A stretch of DNA of 64,000 nt from a virus (lineage: Duplodnaviria > Caudoviricetes), in IMG/VR virus record IMGVR_UViG_3300028591_000130, positions 40,761 through 104,760 of that record; one strand, written 5' to 3'. Under the pieces are notes generated by a model. That model worked only from the letters and a program-made list of their open reading frames with translations. It was not told the origin of the DNA and made no database searches. The position numbers and the translations under genes were made by a program. Of this stretch, positions 40,723-63,471 are shown piece after piece. Position 1 is the stretch's first letter; each line of letters starts with the position of its first letter.

Positions 40723-41178
40723 ATGCTGACACAAGATAAAGGACTTGAAGGTTTTTCGTTGCCTATTCTCGGCACTGATTATTACGTTAGGTGCGTTAAG
40801 GCAACAGACATGCCTGACTGGTACTTCAAAGAGAACAAAGGTTACTGTGATCATACTGTTAAAACTATAACCGTAGAAGATTTGGCTACAAGAAGCAATG
40901 ACTATAACGATATTCTTGGTGATCTGGAAGAGATAACGAATCAAACTTTAAGACACGAAATTATTCACGCCTTTTTAAGAGAATCAGGATTGGGTGACGA
41001 AAGTGATATCAGTGAAGTCTTTATTGACTGGCTGGCACTTCAGGCACCCAAAATTTTTAAGACTTTCTGTCAAGCTAAAGCTTTATCTTCGGAACAGATA
41101 CGAGAATGTACTGACGCTTTTAACAGACAAAACGTAAAGGAAAGTGATATCAATGGCAATACAAGGATTACAAACTAA
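40723..41178 (+). CDS. HExxH zinc-metallopeptidase-like phage protein
   Basis: GYCD...TLRHEIIHAFLRESGL...E..DW. Confidence 0.7.
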   Translation: MLTQDKGLEGFSLPILGTDYYVRCVKATDMPDWYFKENKGYCDHTVKTITVEDLATRSNDYNDILGDLEEITNQTLRHEIIHAFLRESGLGDESDISEVFIDWLALQAPKIFKTFCQAKALSSEQIRECTDAFNRQNVKESDINGNTRITN

Positions 41179-58013: not shown

Positions 58014-60791
58014 ATGTCCATAGGTAAGGGTTTGAAGTTATCTCCCCCTTTTCCCCGGACCCACACCGGACATAAGATTTTCACCTTATCCGGCGTTCCC
58101 CCTATGCTTACTTTCTTTTATAACGATAGTTCTGATTTTTCAAGTTTTCCTTTTCTTGCTAATTCTTCTTGTTGCGTATACTACAGATGGTTCACATATA
58201 CTTCTAAGTTTATTCACTTTGGCTATCATTTTGGAATCAAGATTACATTCCTTTGTTAACCTTTCTATTGTTTCTTCATTAGTACTGTGTATCAGCAAAT
58301 GAATCTTTTCTTCTACACAAACTAAGTTACTGTATTCGTCTGTACCTCCAAGCTTCAACGGGGTTTTATGGTGACAGTGAATCTCTTCAGGGCTGACGAA
58401 TTCTCTACCTGTTATTGCGCATTTGCCGTGTTGATTGACGTAGCAACTGAGTTTGTTGTTTTGATATTCGATGCTTCTATCTCCGCTTCCCATATTAACT
58501 TCTGCTAGCCATTCAAGTTCATTAAGGTCTATTTCCTTATGAATAAGATATCTACCTTCTTCACTGAATGCGCATATATGTCTATTTAGCGGTTTCGGAT
58601 ACTCACACTGAACATAAGCTATCGGATATAGCGGTTCTCCGCTAGACTTTTCAAATCGTAACATTTTACTTTGTCCAAATCTTCTAGCTTCCGACCTTGT
58701 AAGTTCTCTACCCATTTTGTCTAGTCTTCCTTTTCTTTTAACACTTTTCAACTTTATCAACATAGCATTGTTTATTTGATATCCTATTTCTCTACAATCT
58801 ATATTGACCATAGTTGCATATCTGTAATAATTTTGGAACCCTATGACTTTTCGGTTAAACTCAGCTACCCTTTTCCTAGCTTGTCTTGGATCTCTACTGT
58901 GTGATATCAGTTCTAGCATAAATTTCAGCTTTTGCTTAATTCTAGCCTTTGCCTTCTTACAGATCCAAGTTCTTGCTATGTAACTTTTACCTTTTGCTAC
59001 TGCCTTAAAGATGAACCCAAGAAATTCGATCCCCTTTTCTTTTAGATTCACGATTATACTTTTTTCTTCTGATATTTCTAGTTTTAGGTTTCTCTTTAGG
59101 AAGTTTTTACACGCTATTAATATTCTTCGACATTCTTCATTATTCTTTCCGAAGATAATTACGTCGTCGGCATATCTAACGTGATACATTTCTTTAAGAT
59201 TACCTTTACGCATTTTCTTGTAACTTTCACCTTTATGCAGTACTCCCGGTTTTACTTCCCTAGCTTTCCTTATCGCACGCGGGTTATTTATCCATTGCCT
59301 TTCTATCCATTTATCAAATTCGTCTAGTACTATATTAGCTAAGAGTGGTGAGATTATTCCTCCTTGCGGCGTTCCTTTTGTATTCTCAATCAGTTCTCCG
59401 TTTGGAAGTTTAATCTTTGCTTTCAGAATCTGTCTTATGATATAGATTAGCTTTTTATCCCTGATACCGTATGACCAAATTCTCTTAATGAGTCTACTAT
59501 GGTTTACGTTATCAAAGAACTTTGTAATGTCAATCTTTATTCCATAGTACATATGACTTTTGTTTATTCTATAGTTTACGTCTGCAACTGCGTGTTGTGC
59601 ACTATGACAAGTTCTAAACCCGTGACTGTATCTGCTAAATTTTGCTTCACAAATAGGTTCCATTACTTGATATATGCACTGTTGAATTAATCTGTCCCAT
59701 ATACTAGGAATGCCTAGCGGTCTAAGATCTCCATTCTCTTTAGGAATTTCAAATCTTCTTACTGCTTTAGGCTTATAGCCCGCTTTACTTAATGTAAGGT
59801 TTTTAACTTTGTCAATCACTTCCGACATAGTCATTTCCTTTATGTCGTCAATAGTTTCTCCGTCTGTTCCTTCCGTAGAACTTCCTTTGTTACTCTTGAC
59901 ATTTCTGTATGCTAGCCTAATGTTATTGTCTGAGAAGATCAGTCCTGTTAGGTTTTCAAAGTTGTCACCGATGCTGCTTCTGTAATGAAGCATATCGAAT
60001 ACTTCCAGCATACCTTCAATCTCCGCGTTCCTAATGTTAGCCTTAATGTTTTCTCTTCCGTATTCGTTTACCATAGGGCGACACCTCCGTGTTCCTTTTG
60101 AAATTCCTTCGCCTATCTCTAGGTTACTATTATCCCTATGTAGCTAATAATTCTTGTAAGCATAGGCTTGAGTTCATTACTACTTCTCACATTATATGAG
60201 ATATCAACGCTTCGATCTCTACTTTTCAGCAGGGATTAAGAGTGCTTATTTTCTTCGTCACTCAACTTCTTTTTTTCCCGTTCCCTACCTTTCAACGTTC
60301 CTATATACTTATCACTTGTGTCCTTAGGACCCGAATATAAGCCTGCTAACTTGATACTGCCCGCTTCTTTCGATTCGCAGTATAGGGAATTTCATAGGCG
60401 ACATTATTACTTTACCCCATTAGCCCTATTTACATAGTAAATGCCCATTCGACAATTTCTAACTTTTAGACCCTTTAATTTCTCCGGTTCGTCAACCTTT
60501 TACGGTATACTATCCATAGACACATTATACGACTTCCGGCCTATCAGTAACAAACGTACCGCTACGTTCTTTTCCACTCTCATACTTTGTTAGTATTGTA
60601 GGGTTACCTTCAGCCGACTTTATCCCGCTTCACACAATTTAGCTTTCGCTTATAACTGCGTGGGGAAGTCTCAAAGTTAGCCTTTCAGGACGTTACTCCT
60701 TCATTCGACTAATCAGTATACAAGTTGTACCTAATTTCTTAGGCCGCGCAATCCCCAAGTATTTCTACTCTTTCTGCGCAACATTTCGCAC
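58014..60791 (-). mobile_element. Group II intron (2778 nt, probably bacterial class B)
   Basis: 5' GTGCG at 60791; domain V ACGCCGGATAAGGTGAAAATCTTATGTCCGGTGT (58096-58063); domain VI ending ACCTATGGACAT at 58014. Excision restores the frame (NWR-Q-AIDDDG). Confidence 0.93.
58140..60074 (-). CDS. ltrA: Group II intron reverse transcriptase/maturase with HNH endonuclease
   Basis: RPLGIP..WDR, GTPQGGIISPLLANI, RYADD, FLGF, domain X, CAITG...HCHH...N...H. Confidence 0.95.
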   Translation of the reverse strand: MVNEYGRENIKANIRNAEIEGMLEVFDMLHYRSSIGDNFENLTGLIFSDNNIRLAYRNVKSNKGSSTEGTDGETIDDIKEMTMSEVIDKVKNLTLSKAGYKPKAVRRFEIPKENGDLRPLGIPSIWDRLIQQCIYQVMEPICEAKFSRYSHGFRTCHSAQHAVADVNYRINKSHMYYGIKIDITKFFDNVNHSRLIKRIWSYGIRDKKLIYIIRQILKAKIKLPNGELIENTKGTPQGGIISPLLANIVLDEFDKWIERQWINNPRAIRKAREVKPGVLHKGESYKKMRKGNLKEMYHVRYADDVIIFGKNNEECRRILIACKNFLKRNLKLEISEEKSIIVNLKEKGIEFLGFIFKAVAKGKSYIARTWICKKAKARIKQKLKFMLELISHSRDPRQARKRVAEFNRKVIGFQNYYRYATMVNIDCREIGYQINNAMLIKLKSVKRKGRLDKMGRELTRSEARRFGQSKMLRFEKSSGEPLYPIAYVQCEYPKPLNRHICAFSEEGRYLIHKEIDLNELEWLAEVNMGSGDRSIEYQNNKLSCYVNQHGKCAITGREFVSPEEIHCHHKTPLKLGGTDEYSNLVCVEEKIHLLIHSTNEETIERLTKECNLDSKMIAKVNKLRSICEPSVVYATRRISKKRKT

Positions 60792-61170
60792 GCCTCCAGT
60801 TAATATGCGGCTTTTGTTCTTCAAGTGGTACTAACGACCAATTCATAACAATACCAGGGCCCCATATATCGTTAAGACCTGCAGCGTCATTACCTTGATC
60901 TTTTAGTACCTTAGTCAAATCTATCTTACCACTTTTAGGTTGATTAACGTATTCTTCTACTCTGGACATTCTAACGTATTCTTCGTTATTCGTGTATGAC
61001 ATTTGTAGATCATCTAACACTTGCGCTACGTTGACACCGATATCATTCATACATTCGTATACCTGACCAAATATAGGCTCAAAACGTGTACAACAAAGGC
61101 ACTGATCAATTTGTACCAGAGCAGCATCGCCAACGCGATCATCTTTCATACAACGGATACAACGATATTT
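60792..61170 (-). CDS. Exon 2 of the split gene
   Basis: KYRCIRCMKDDR...KPHINWR between the group I terminal G (61171) and the group II GTGCG. Confidence 0.8.
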
Positions 61171-61446
61171 CAGTTTTGTTATCGTAAGGCTTTTTATCCT
61201 TACTTCTACATCATTACAATGTAGCTCGGCGTACCTTTTTACGTAATATATAACTTTTTACAAGTTACTTGTTACAACGTAACGCGGACTCTTGGATCTA
61301 TTATTTCAAGATCTACGCTCTGCCCCTGACTATCCAGTTGTGGATATCACTGTGTCACCACAGTTTAGTTTACTGTTAAACGCCTTCGGTTCGGGTTGCC
61401 TGACACTGTAAAAGTATCGTTACGGCTTTCCTGCTTAATTCCGCGT

Positions 61447-62472
61447 TCATACTCCAAAGTCTTCTGTAACATTTGACTTTGGACGAGTTATGATTTGGCT
61501 GAATATGTCATGTTTTCTGTCAAGATAGATAGTTGCTTCATCATATAAAAACCTGTAAATATCTTGAAGTCTATATACTCCACTGTACGCTATTGCTTGA
61601 GTATTAATGTTCCAACTTTTTTGATGTATCCTTTTAGTTGGTTTTTGGTTATGACAGTGAGATAATAAGATACTTTCATAAACATCTAAGAAAGCAGGAG
61701 TTCCTAATACCTGAAATACGCTATTATAAATACGACTTTTTACATTAACGTATCCGTCACCGTCAAAATAACCGCGCATAAAATGGTTCCTATACTGTTT
61801 AGGAAGCTGTTCTTCAGATGGAAAAGTTAAAACTAAAGACTTCTTTTGTACACATCCTAAACGTATTAAGTCATTAGTGACTTTTATTGAACAAACATTT
61901 AAGCTATAAGCATTGACTCTTTTTTCAAAACGTAATGGAATATGTCCTTCAATATTATGTAAAAACTTTTCAAGATGCAGTTTATCAGAAGCTTTCAAAG
62001 TAATTACCAAGACACCACGCTCTGCAACATATCCATCAGCATAAATAAACCCTAACCAATACGCTTGATCTTCTGAAGATATTTTAGAGAAATAGTTTTC
62101 ATTAAATAAATATTTTCTGTTTTTCTGAATACCATTATCATCTCTAGCGCCAGTATTTATGCCTTTAGCAAATAATGCTTGATATACATAATGTGTGCTA
62201 ATACCAAGCTCATCAGCGACCTTACGTATTGAATAATATTGATTATAAGAGTCTGCTACTGCATCTGCAACTTTTAGCACCTTTGGACTAGGTGACATTA
62301 ATTGATATTTGTGTAAGATATTTAAAATGCCATGCTTGCTTAAGCCGAAAGTTTGAACAAGTTCAGCAACTTTACTGCCTTGCCGAAAAGCGTTACAGAT
62401 TTTTTGATCACGTTTTTGAATATCATTATCTTGACTATTTGTATCTATAACCAGTGAAATATTTTCAGACAT
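61447..62472 (-). CDS. LAGLIDADG homing endonuclease with N-terminal HTHs
   Basis: YWLGFIYADGYV and HFMRGYFDGDGYV; ATG 62472 after GGGAGG. Confidence 0.9.
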   Translation of the reverse strand: MSENISLVIDTNSQDNDIQKRDQKICNAFRQGSKVAELVQTFGLSKHGILNILHKYQLMSPSPKVLKVADAVADSYNQYYSIRKVADELGISTHYVYQALFAKGINTGARDDNGIQKNRKYLFNENYFSKISSEDQAYWLGFIYADGYVAERGVLVITLKASDKLHLEKFLHNIEGHIPLRFEKRVNAYSLNVCSIKVTNDLIRLGCVQKKSLVLTFPSEEQLPKQYRNHFMRGYFDGDGYVNVKSRIYNSVFQVLGTPAFLDVYESILLSHCHNQKPTKRIHQKSWNINTQAIAYSGVYRLQDIYRFLYDEATIYLDRKHDIFSQIITRPKSNVTEDFGV

Positions 62473-62496
62473 ATTGTCTTCCTCCCTCTTCATCTG

Positions 62497-62526
62497 ATTA
62501 TAGCTTACAATACATTACATTGTCAA
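62497..62526 (-). promoter_or_regulatory. Intron-internal SigA-type promoter for the endonuclease
   Basis: TTGACA-18 nt-TATAAT. Confidence 0.8.
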
Positions 62527-62535
62527 CCCTTCATT

Positions 62536-63471
62536 CTCAAATGTCGTTTGCCCACCGTAGTAGTGACAATTTATCATTACTCGTGCACCCATACGAAAGA
62601 GATATCTTGAGAACGTTGAAATATTATTTTCGATACGAACCAAGCGTTTTTCGATAGCGTCACATTGGCTGACAACTGCCTTAGCAGCTTGTAAACCGTG
62701 ATTGTGAGTGTCTAACGTGTAGATCTTTACTCTTGGTAAATGTGTTTCAAATTCTTCTATTTTTTGATCTACGGGAAATGGATCTCTGTTCTGCGGCGGC
62801 TTGCCTGAGTTTGGTTCTTTGAAGTCATTCTTAAAGGTTTTAAAGTTAAGAAGGTGTTGTCTTGCACGGATAGTAGTAGCGTTACCTAAGATTGACGAAA
62901 GTTCTGCACCGCCTACGGATCCTTGAAGTTGTGATATCACCTCAGCATTATCCGTACCGTACAGAGTTTCGTTGATTCTCTTCATAGCTGCCGCAAGATT
63001 ATTAGCTTTAGCTATAGCTTCAGCGTTAGCTTGTTTTGTCTCTTCAGCTATCCTTTTATCGTAAGCTTCCTTAGCTTTTTGTAAGGCTTCGTCACTTGCG
63101 TAATAGACACCGTCAACTACTCTTTCGGGGTGTTGTGCAGCAAGAGCAGCGTTACGTACCTTCTCTTCTTCAGTCATAGTATTCTTGGCTATAGCTGTTG
63201 TAACTTCGTTAGTAGGTGTCATTGCCTTATATTGTTCAAGAATTTCTTCTCCAGCTTTGATCTGTTTTTCTATTTCTGTTTGTGTAGATTGTGTCCTTGT
63301 GATATCAGCGTTAATACTTTCTTCTGTATCATTCATTGTCCAGTTAGTAGGATCCTTAAGTTTCTCTCTTAGTGCGCCAATGCTGCTTGTAGCGTCAGAA
63401 GACATTTTTCTTAACCTTAACAGTTCTTCTTCAATTTCTGTAATCTTAGCTGTAAGCTCAGTTTGGGTCAT
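62536..63471 (-). CDS. Exon 1 of the split gene (coiled-coil N-terminus)
   Basis: ORF ends ...INCHYYGGQTTFE just before the intron promoter. Confidence 0.78.

Follow-up and report, generated by a model that had tools for sequence, protein, structure and literature searches.

A natural phage group I intron whose upstream exon probably ends in G, paired to C, at the 5' splice site

Introduction

A U·G wobble at the 5' splice site counts as a hallmark of group I introns with hardly any exceptions, and the catalytic core is understood to use it for recognition. How would such a ribozyme choose its 5' splice site where the upstream exon does not end in U? This question is raised by a 64,000-nucleotide stretch of DNA (here called the window) that covers positions 40,761 to 104,760 of the 104,760-base IMG/VR virus record IMGVR_UViG_3300028591_000130, which comes from sheep gut. 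On the minus strand of the window a tail-lysin-type gene is split twice, by a group I intron of 1365 nt (window 62535-61171) and then by a group II intron. An earlier note, made from the letters of the window, had proposed that the first of these introns has a non-canonical 5' splice site, that its exon is recognised by the loop of a hairpin hidden in the last codons of an endonuclease open reading frame (ORF), and that it belongs to a distinct group I subclass.

Here we compare this intron with its relatives in other phages. The element is quite probably a mobile group I intron of a large phage family that cuts its exon after a G paired to C. By this comparison the intron appears as a genuine group I member of an otherwise ordinary family, and the unusual part is the non-U 5' splice site.

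Results

Position of the exon junction

The following features, all on the minus strand and in window coordinates, define the split gene and its first junction.

62536..63471, minus strand: exon 1, encoding a virion-associated peptidoglycan hydrolase / tail-lysin-like protein (ORF list and 120 uninterrupted homologues)
60792..61170, minus strand: exon 2, KYRCIRCMKDD ... HINWR, bordering the group II intron at its end
62515..62517, minus strand: UAA that ends the read-through from exon 1, with the tail NEGLTM (sequence and ORF list)
62535..62536, minus strand: 5' splice site, with G62536 as last exon base and A62535 as first intron base (homologues, intron-less allele, omega-G context, and the related contigs L124, L126 and L127)
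61171, minus strand: omega-G, the last intron base, in the context AACAAAACUG↓AAAUAU, where the arrow marks the cut (same 3' end in L007, L124 and L126; G there across the family)

Exon 1 ends in ...GGQTTFE, with the codon GAG at 62538-62536 (nucleotides ...INCHYYGGQTTFE). A related contig, L002, carries an uninterrupted homologue of the split gene (1131 aa), and a search with this homologue returned 120 uninterrupted proteins, in about 70 of which the motif around the junction is visible. Nearly all of these 70 read YYGGQ, four residues and then KYxCIRC, and the closest ones have GGQTTFEKYKCIRCM, identical to exon 1 ...GGQTTFE joined to exon 2 KYRCIRCM of the window.

The same junction is given by an intron-less allele at the DNA level. 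In each of the DNA runs X2 and X7 (sheep gut, two studies), one contig joins 61161 to 62561 through 34 letters that differ from the window and encode YGGITTFQKYR. Because these 34 nt are the sum of 25 nt (62560-62536) and 9 nt (61170-61162), the cut would fall after 62536 and the message would restart at 61170; 31 nt would be expected for a cut after U62539 and 37 for one after U62533. Both borders carry a GAA repeat, which permits four cut pairs that yield the same mRNA. None of the four follows a U, and a terminal intron G is obtained only with G62536/G61171, where G61171 is an omega-G in the conserved context GAUAACAAAACUG↓.

The junction is thus fixed by data that are independent of any RNA model, and a 5' splice site that does not follow U is supported by several independent lines of evidence. 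The homologues, the intron-less allele and three more intron-bearing relatives all confirm the FE↓KY junction of the earlier note, in which exon 1 ends at G62536. The note's proposal of a group I intron with a 5' splice site not after U likewise holds, with G62536 lying opposite C61487. The U that is expected at the exon end of a group I intron, as part of the U·G wobble, is absent here and also from L124, L126 and L127.

A large phage family with a group I core

The 3' part of the intron, from the 3' strand of P7 to the end, matches many phage records. To gather the family, we first scanned IMG/VR with a pattern and then applied a profile of the 3' domain, which resulted in about 100 members whose 3' domain reads ...GAUAAAAA-N7/8-GAUAACA-N-G. 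The window intron matches the hidden Markov model (HMM) of this domain with 109.7 bits (nhmmer, E = 6.7e-32), and its guide, P2, J2/3 and P3 follow one another in the same order as in the family. The introns in Staphylococcus phage S-CoN_Ph1 TerL, Bacillus phage KLEB27-3 DnaB and the TerL gene of an uncultured phage, which were read in detail, have exons that end in U, a terminal G and the same core, and the intron in the RecD-like helicase gene of Bacillus phage PJN02 is arranged as in the window, with an ORF followed by a core of about 330 nt. The core elements of the window intron are as follows.

61440..61447, minus strand: P3 5' strand, AACGCGGA, its first base being the last base of the ORF stop (pairs with 61288-61281)
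61281..61288, minus strand: P3 3' strand, UCCGCGUU (pairs with 61447-61440)
61322..61436, minus strand: P4-P5-P6 domain with the motif CAACCCGAACCGAAGG of the subfamily and an extended, branched P6 (by-eye alignment with L086, L118, L011, L004, L126 and L127)
61314..61318, minus strand: P7 5' strand, GCGUA (pairs with 61233-61229)
61229..61233, minus strand: P7 3' strand, UACGC (family comparison)
61295..61313, minus strand: P7.1-type hairpin GAUCU/AGAUC between P7 and the P3 3' strand, then conserved CCAAGAG (covariation)
61241..61280, minus strand: P8 region, which holds the partner (61277-61270) of the P2 loop, L2 (family comparison)
61184..61224, minus strand: hairpins P9 (61224-61206) and P9.1 (61203-61184) (3'-domain HMM match and alignments)

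The two strands of P3 vary across the family yet remain complementary. In an alignment of 29 sequences, P7 pairing is complete (100% of cells) and 3 of the 5 P7 pairs show compensatory changes, while the P7.1-type hairpin reaches 99.3% pairing and each of its 5 pairs varies on both sides; the counts for P9 and P9.1 are low, the alignment being off by one column there. The P7 variant GCGUA/UACGC that the earlier note had singled out is indeed present, but it is not distinctive, since 23 family members carry it next to 42 with GCAUA/UAUGC. With one covarying P7.1-type hairpin between P7 and the P3 3' strand, the core is IA-like and a candidate for subgroup IA (IA1, IA2 or IA3), in which the extra helices P7.1/P7.2 are inserted at this place. 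Judged by its P3, P4-P6, P7 and P8 core with a P3/P7 pseudoknot and by its omega-G, the element appears to be a group I intron, and the idea of a distinct subclass gives way to membership of a large family with a described architecture.

The guide and an extended P1

Two further features describe the predicted pairing between the exon and the intron.

61484..61513, minus strand: P1 3' strand, with the guide CUC (61487-61485) opposite exon GAG and G61484 opposite U62539 (family comparison)
62512..62539, minus strand: 5' strand of an extended P1, consisting of exon UGAG, an unpaired A62535, and then AUGA, GGUUGA, AUGU and AUGU (RNAduplex)

In the introns of PJN02, L003, L004 and L010, the ORF lies in the P1 loop and the guide occupies the last stretch of the ORF, immediately before P2, where (U)UUGCC pairs with the exon end GGU and the first intron bases; in S-CoN_Ph1 the same P1 is formed as a local hairpin. 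About 35 inspected members with a clear P2 and P3 have GCC, GUC, GGC or GCU as the triplet just 5' of P2. These triplets pair with the exon ends GGU, GAU, AGU and GUU in in-frame P1 helices of 7-13 bp, as found by an automated search that solved 27 of 46 non-redundant members and failed on the remainder for technical reasons (wrong P2 call, recoded stop, short flank) and not because they were shown to be non-canonical. The first base of the guide is G in every inspected member, except for the introns at the insertion site of the window, which we call site-B introns. The place of the guide in the family, as G-N-N facing an exon end N-N-U, is therefore supported by covariation.

The corresponding triplet of the window, CUC, lies four nt upstream of P2 (61483-61453), with C61487 at the position of the family's wobble G. 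It is complementary to exon GAG (62538-62536) and forms the cleavage-site pair G62536-C61487. By positional homology with the approximately 35 relatives, the guide of the window intron would be CUC(G), 61487-61484. The exon-binding sequence thus does seem to lie within the last codons of the endonuclease, as had been proposed, but it is the CUC(G) 5' of P2 and not the loop sequence.

Beyond A62535, the 5' end of the intron pairs with 61513-61490 through AUGA/UCAU, GGUUGA/UCAGCC, AUGU/ACAU and AUGU/ACAU. With 61513-61484 the extended P1 comprises 21 bp at -19.4 kcal/mol (RNAduplex), an energy that is reached by one other site in the intron and by 27 of 11,632 background windows of the 64 kb. 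Such a long stem appears to be the form of P1 that is expected with an ORF in its loop. A stretch in the P5 region, 61388-61420, pairs with the intron 5' end about as well (-20.5 kcal/mol) and could be a competing alternative or due to chance. Neither a local P1 hairpin beside the 5' splice site nor a P1 for U62533 or U62539 was found as a convincing helix by eye or with RNAduplex. The 5' strand of P2 with a bulge was also considered as a guide and rejected, P2 being conserved.

The exon could instead be cut at a U·G wobble, namely U62539·G61484, with GAG as the first three intron bases pairing with CUC and an mRNA without the E codon (TTF↓KY; predicted junction ...ACAUUU-AAAUAU). All four site-B introns share this conserved U·G, and GAG/CUC would resemble the intron-side extension of P1 in the family. 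The exon side of P1 would then shrink to a single pair, however, and 1 nt would separate the wobble partner from P2, against 3-4 nt in the family. The encoded protein is also against such a cut: GAG is the consensus E codon of the closest homologues, the three-residue spacing from GGQ to KY occurs in none of the approximately 70 homologues, and the intron-less allele has 34 nt and not 31. We consider this reading highly improbable and retain G62536 as the last exon base.

Site-B introns in other phages

Exon 1 had no megablast or tblastn match in the 'phages' collection, a search for related loci by exon 1 found none, and a degenerate pattern for the CIRCMKDD codons matched only L002. The database cluster of the endonuclease ORF (P0121, 341 aa) led to two ENA scaffolds, L124 and L125, in which the intron core is 98.9% and exon 1 91% identical to the window, and the endonuclease ORF has a 542-nt deletion. 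In L126 and L127, with 64% and 75% exon 1 protein identity to the window, introns occur at the window's site, where the sequence reads ...UUUUGAG↓AAAGG..., and CUCG precedes P2. The L126 intron ends in AACAAAACUG↓AAAUAU, followed by an exon 2 that starts KYRCIRCLKDD, and its P1 is an equivalent long stem of different sequence at -23.3 kcal/mol, the best site in that intron. The L127 intron, which lacks an ORF, has a local hairpin for its P1; the contig ends within the intron.

L124/L125, L126 and L127 share ...UUUGAG↓A... and a CUCG before P2, and in all site-B introns the +1 base after the cut is an A that faces A or C. The predicted G(-1)/C pair and the unpaired A(+1) therefore appear to recur in three diverged phage lineages, and the G-C cleavage-site pair persists whether or not the endonuclease gene is intact. 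Such conservation argues for accurate removal of the site-B introns in vivo.

Besides its site-B intron, L124 has two more family introns in the same gene, of which intron A follows a GGU 18 nt upstream, so that an 18-nt micro-exon (L124 2918-2935) is left between intron A and the site-B intron. Three family group I introns thus lie within about 170 nt of coding sequence in L124 2030-3770, which is identical in L125.

The same GGU provides a canonical U·G candidate for the window. A cut after U62554 (GGU↓GGG) with CUCGUC (61487-61482) as guide would skip 62553-62536 and give an in-frame protein without GQTTFE, with a predicted cDNA ...UACGGU-AAAUAU. A canonical-looking P1 of 6 bp and a P10-like pairing do exist for it, and GGU is the genuine site of intron A in L124. 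The 18 skipped nt, on the other hand, encode GQTTFE as in the uninterrupted homologues, keep the length of the intron-less allele and differ from the L124 micro-exon at three positions, all of them synonymous. The pairing also requires two bases of P2, is weakened by GGA in the exons of L124, L126 and L127, and uses as GUC what is the family's conserved spacer plus the start of P2. We therefore regard U62554 as an improbable splice site and keep the cut after G62536. GGU↓GGG at window 62551-62556 is nevertheless a full complement of CUCGUC at 61482-61487 and possibly a cryptic site 18 nt upstream of the productive one.

The L2 loop and its partner in P8

The hairpin that precedes P3 provides two features.

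61453..61483, minus strand: P2 hairpin of 9 bp with a 13-nt L2 loop, 61474-61462 (varies with compensation among relatives)
61464..61471, minus strand: L2 bases UGUUACAG, paired to UUGUAACA (61277-61270) of the P8 region in a tertiary kissing interaction (covariation)

The 9-bp hairpin of the earlier note (61483-61475 / 61461-61453) exists and is the P2 of the family. Among 16 members, cognate L2-P8 duplexes are stronger than non-cognate ones (permutation p = 0.0004), and covarying pairs are seen in L011, L066, L069, L021 (two introns), L124 intron C and L126. The pairings in relatives include ACCACA/UGUGGU, ACCGA/UCGGU, ACCGUC/GACGGU and ACUACC/GGUAGU as well as ACUAUC/GAUAGU, GGUUGUA/UACAACC and AACACAG/CUGUGUU. 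The L2 loop thus appears to serve in a tertiary contact with the P8 region, the pairs of which covary.

This bears on the guide first proposed for the locus, UCAAAUGUU (61476-61468), which lies mostly in the loop of the 9-bp hairpin and would recognise exon positions 62545-62537, making the intron the member of a new subclass. The 9-nt complementarity is real, reaches -10.4 kcal/mol and stands just upstream of P3, but it is no better than chance: for the same exon end, two other ORF sites give pairings of equal or greater strength (-12.8 and -10.2 kcal/mol). The proposed guide shares bases with the P2 stem and with the part of L2 that is paired to P8, and its register leaves the splice site outside the helix, facing a G·G mismatch. 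L124 has an exon U in place of A62542, which breaks the helix by a U·U mismatch while the loop is unchanged. No equivalent helix is formed in L126 and L127, which carry introns at the same site, or in L004, L007 and L010. We give loop-presented exon recognition next to no credence.

The endonuclease gene and the neighbouring group II intron

The remaining features are an ORF inside the group I intron and a second intron downstream in the same gene.

61447..62472, minus strand: LAGLIDADG homing-endonuclease ORF with N-terminal helix-turn-helix (HTH) domains, in the terminal loop of P1 (Pfam)
58014..60791, minus strand: group II intron with a reverse transcriptase/HNH ORF (58140-60074)

The likely start of the endonuclease is AUG 62472, with GGAGG 8 nt upstream; the longest ORF begins at 62493. 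The translation matches Pfam LAGLIDADG_3 (PF14528) at 30 bits (cut-off 22.5) and HTH_50, and contains two LAGLIDADG-type motifs in one chain, ...GFIYADGYV... and ...RGYFDGDGYV.... By its domain and the two motifs it appears to be a LAGLIDADG homing endonuclease. The ORF lies wholly 5' of the ribozyme core and is followed by about 280 nt of structured RNA (61446-61171), and its UGA stop (61449-61447) shares its last base with the first base of P3. The earlier description of a whole endonuclease gene 5' of the core, with its stop adjoining P3, was accordingly correct.

The group II intron is matched by Rfam RF02004 and RF00029 and begins with GUGCG at 60791. An exon join of W-R-Q-A-I-D-D-D-G, as in relatives without the group II intron (loose ends at 60796), requires a 3' end at U58014, which is 10 nt past the end of the Rfam domain V/VI match (58024).

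The ORFs that correspond to exon 1 in relatives (P0245-P0272; window 62518-63471) stop at seven or more places (PNAGK, FPVD, EEF, VHQI, EKRLV, YYG and TTFE). Because these stops fall at at least seven different places, this stretch of the lysin gene appears to be a hot spot for intron insertion. Elsewhere in the family, the TerL exon upstream of the intron in L003 (1150-1400, MT835539.1) has several in-frame TAG codons, which suggests that this phage may read TAG as an amino acid.

Discussion

The following model would account for these observations. A long P1 stem carries the LAGLIDADG gene in its terminal loop, so that coding sequence extends over the P1 3' strand (61513-61484), the whole of P2 and the first base of P3. 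As elsewhere in the family, recognition of the exon would fall to the triplet located 4 nt before P2, here CUC with exon GAG. The reactive phosphate would follow G62536, which is Watson-Crick paired to C61487 next to an unpaired A62535, L2 would dock on the P8 region by an 8-bp kissing interaction, and the 3' splice site would be the omega-G G61171. The spliced mRNA would then read ...ACAUUUGAG-AAAUAUCGU.... Comparison with relatives stands behind the junction, the place of the guide, P2, P3, P7, P7.1, the L2-P8 pairing and the extended P1 as drawn here. We infer that the ribozyme cleaves after the G-C pair well enough in vivo, because an intron with an intact core is kept in several diverged phages in a gene that would be broken without its precise removal.

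Translation of the endonuclease and formation of P1/P2 would be mutually exclusive on one transcript. Given that the P1 3' strand and the whole of P2 lie in coding sequence, the gating of splicing by translation that the earlier note had considered is plausible, although it would not be new in principle.

Several points weigh against a productive cut after G62536. The exon side of P1 has only 3-4 bp, and GAG/CUC is invariant among the four site-B introns, so that the pairing rests on positional homology (three Watson-Crick matches by chance, about 1/64) and not on covariation. No convincing P10 was found between AAAUAU and the bases 5' of the guide, and J3/4, J4/5 and J5/4 are the same as in canonical relatives, with no compensating change visible in the core. 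P4 (61432 and approximately 61392) has an A·C mismatch, CAGG/CCCG, in the window copy and in L124, where L126, L127 and L004 have CGGG/CCCG and intron A of L124 has CAGG/UCUG. No RNA run with the intron sequence is present among the sequencing runs listed. Work on the Tetrahymena ribozyme (Barfod & Cech; Doudna et al.; Knitt et al.; Strobel & Cech) is said to show that replacing the U·G lowers both the activity and the fidelity of the first step. Rfam RF00028 has no match in the window at E ≤ 10; it also has none to the ORF-less introns A and C of L124 at E ≤ 1, and this group I model misses the whole family, not only the window intron.

These weaknesses could mean that self-splicing is inaccurate and that a protein cofactor is needed (e.g., a LAGLIDADG maturase or a host factor), or that the gene copy is defective. 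The lack of a wobble pair, the short exon pairing, the lack of a P10 and the P4 mismatch of the window copy would fit with this. L124 and L127, however, keep the core without an intact endonuclease ORF, and the intron is kept in four genomes from several studies and years. In L124, moreover, the intron core exceeds the flanking exon in conservation (98.9% vs. 91%), which is a signature of recent spread and not of decay. Dependence on a cofactor or a defect is thus unlikely, though it keeps a small chance, and accurate removal by a cut after G62536 is still the reading that we prefer.

Endonuclease genes within P1 are a described arrangement (PMC2504315, PMC8395846), and related introns at different sites are known to adapt by a changed P1 (PMC2504315). 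As in the window, the ORF of such introns lies between the 5' splice site and a guide downstream of it, an in-frame stop follows soon after the 5' splice site, and a P3-P9 core and an omega-G are present. The window intron differs from them in its cleavage pair, G-C instead of U·G, and in having its guide, P2 and the beginning of P3 within coding sequence. The phage family (S-CoN_Ph1 TerL, PJN02 RecD-like helicase, KLEB27-3 DnaB and about 100 IMG/VR loci) shares with the window the core, the P7 variants, P7.1, P9/P9.1, the omega-G context and the position of the guide 5' of P2, and the subfamily of the window also shares the L2-P8 kissing interaction. The other inspected members have a G at the wobble position and, where the junction was solved, an exon end U, and most of them target GGU↓AAA in P-loop codons; in contrast, a C takes the wobble position and a G ends the exon in the site-B introns of the window, L124, L126 and L127. 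A Watson-Crick cleavage pair as in the window is also found in engineered Tetrahymena and other group I ribozymes with the U·G replaced (Barfod & Cech 1989, cited in PMC6545197), but those are laboratory mutants with reduced first-step activity, whereas the window intron is natural and apparently maintained by selection. We found no natural precedent for a group I 5' splice site other than U·G in the searchable literature, although one may exist.

Approximately 100 phage introns escape the Rfam group I model, and routine annotation will overlook them. The tail-lysin gene emerges as a frequent target: relatives together offer at least seven group I sites, one relative has an 18-nt micro-exon, and the window itself contributes a group II intron. 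We think it somewhat more probable than its opposite that the site-B introns form a natural group I lineage, in at least three diverged phages, that splices after a G-C pair with an unpaired +1 A and an otherwise canonical core. Such a lineage would be a rare natural test of how group I ribozymes choose their 5' splice site. Its close canonical relatives with the same core would offer a ready comparison of what the wobble contributes and what can replace it, and the ORF-less intron of L127 is a small starting construct, the 3' part of which must come from a relative. If this holds true, choosing a 5' splice site in vivo would not require the U·G wobble, and the cut would be fixed not by the wobble but by where P1 stands relative to P2.

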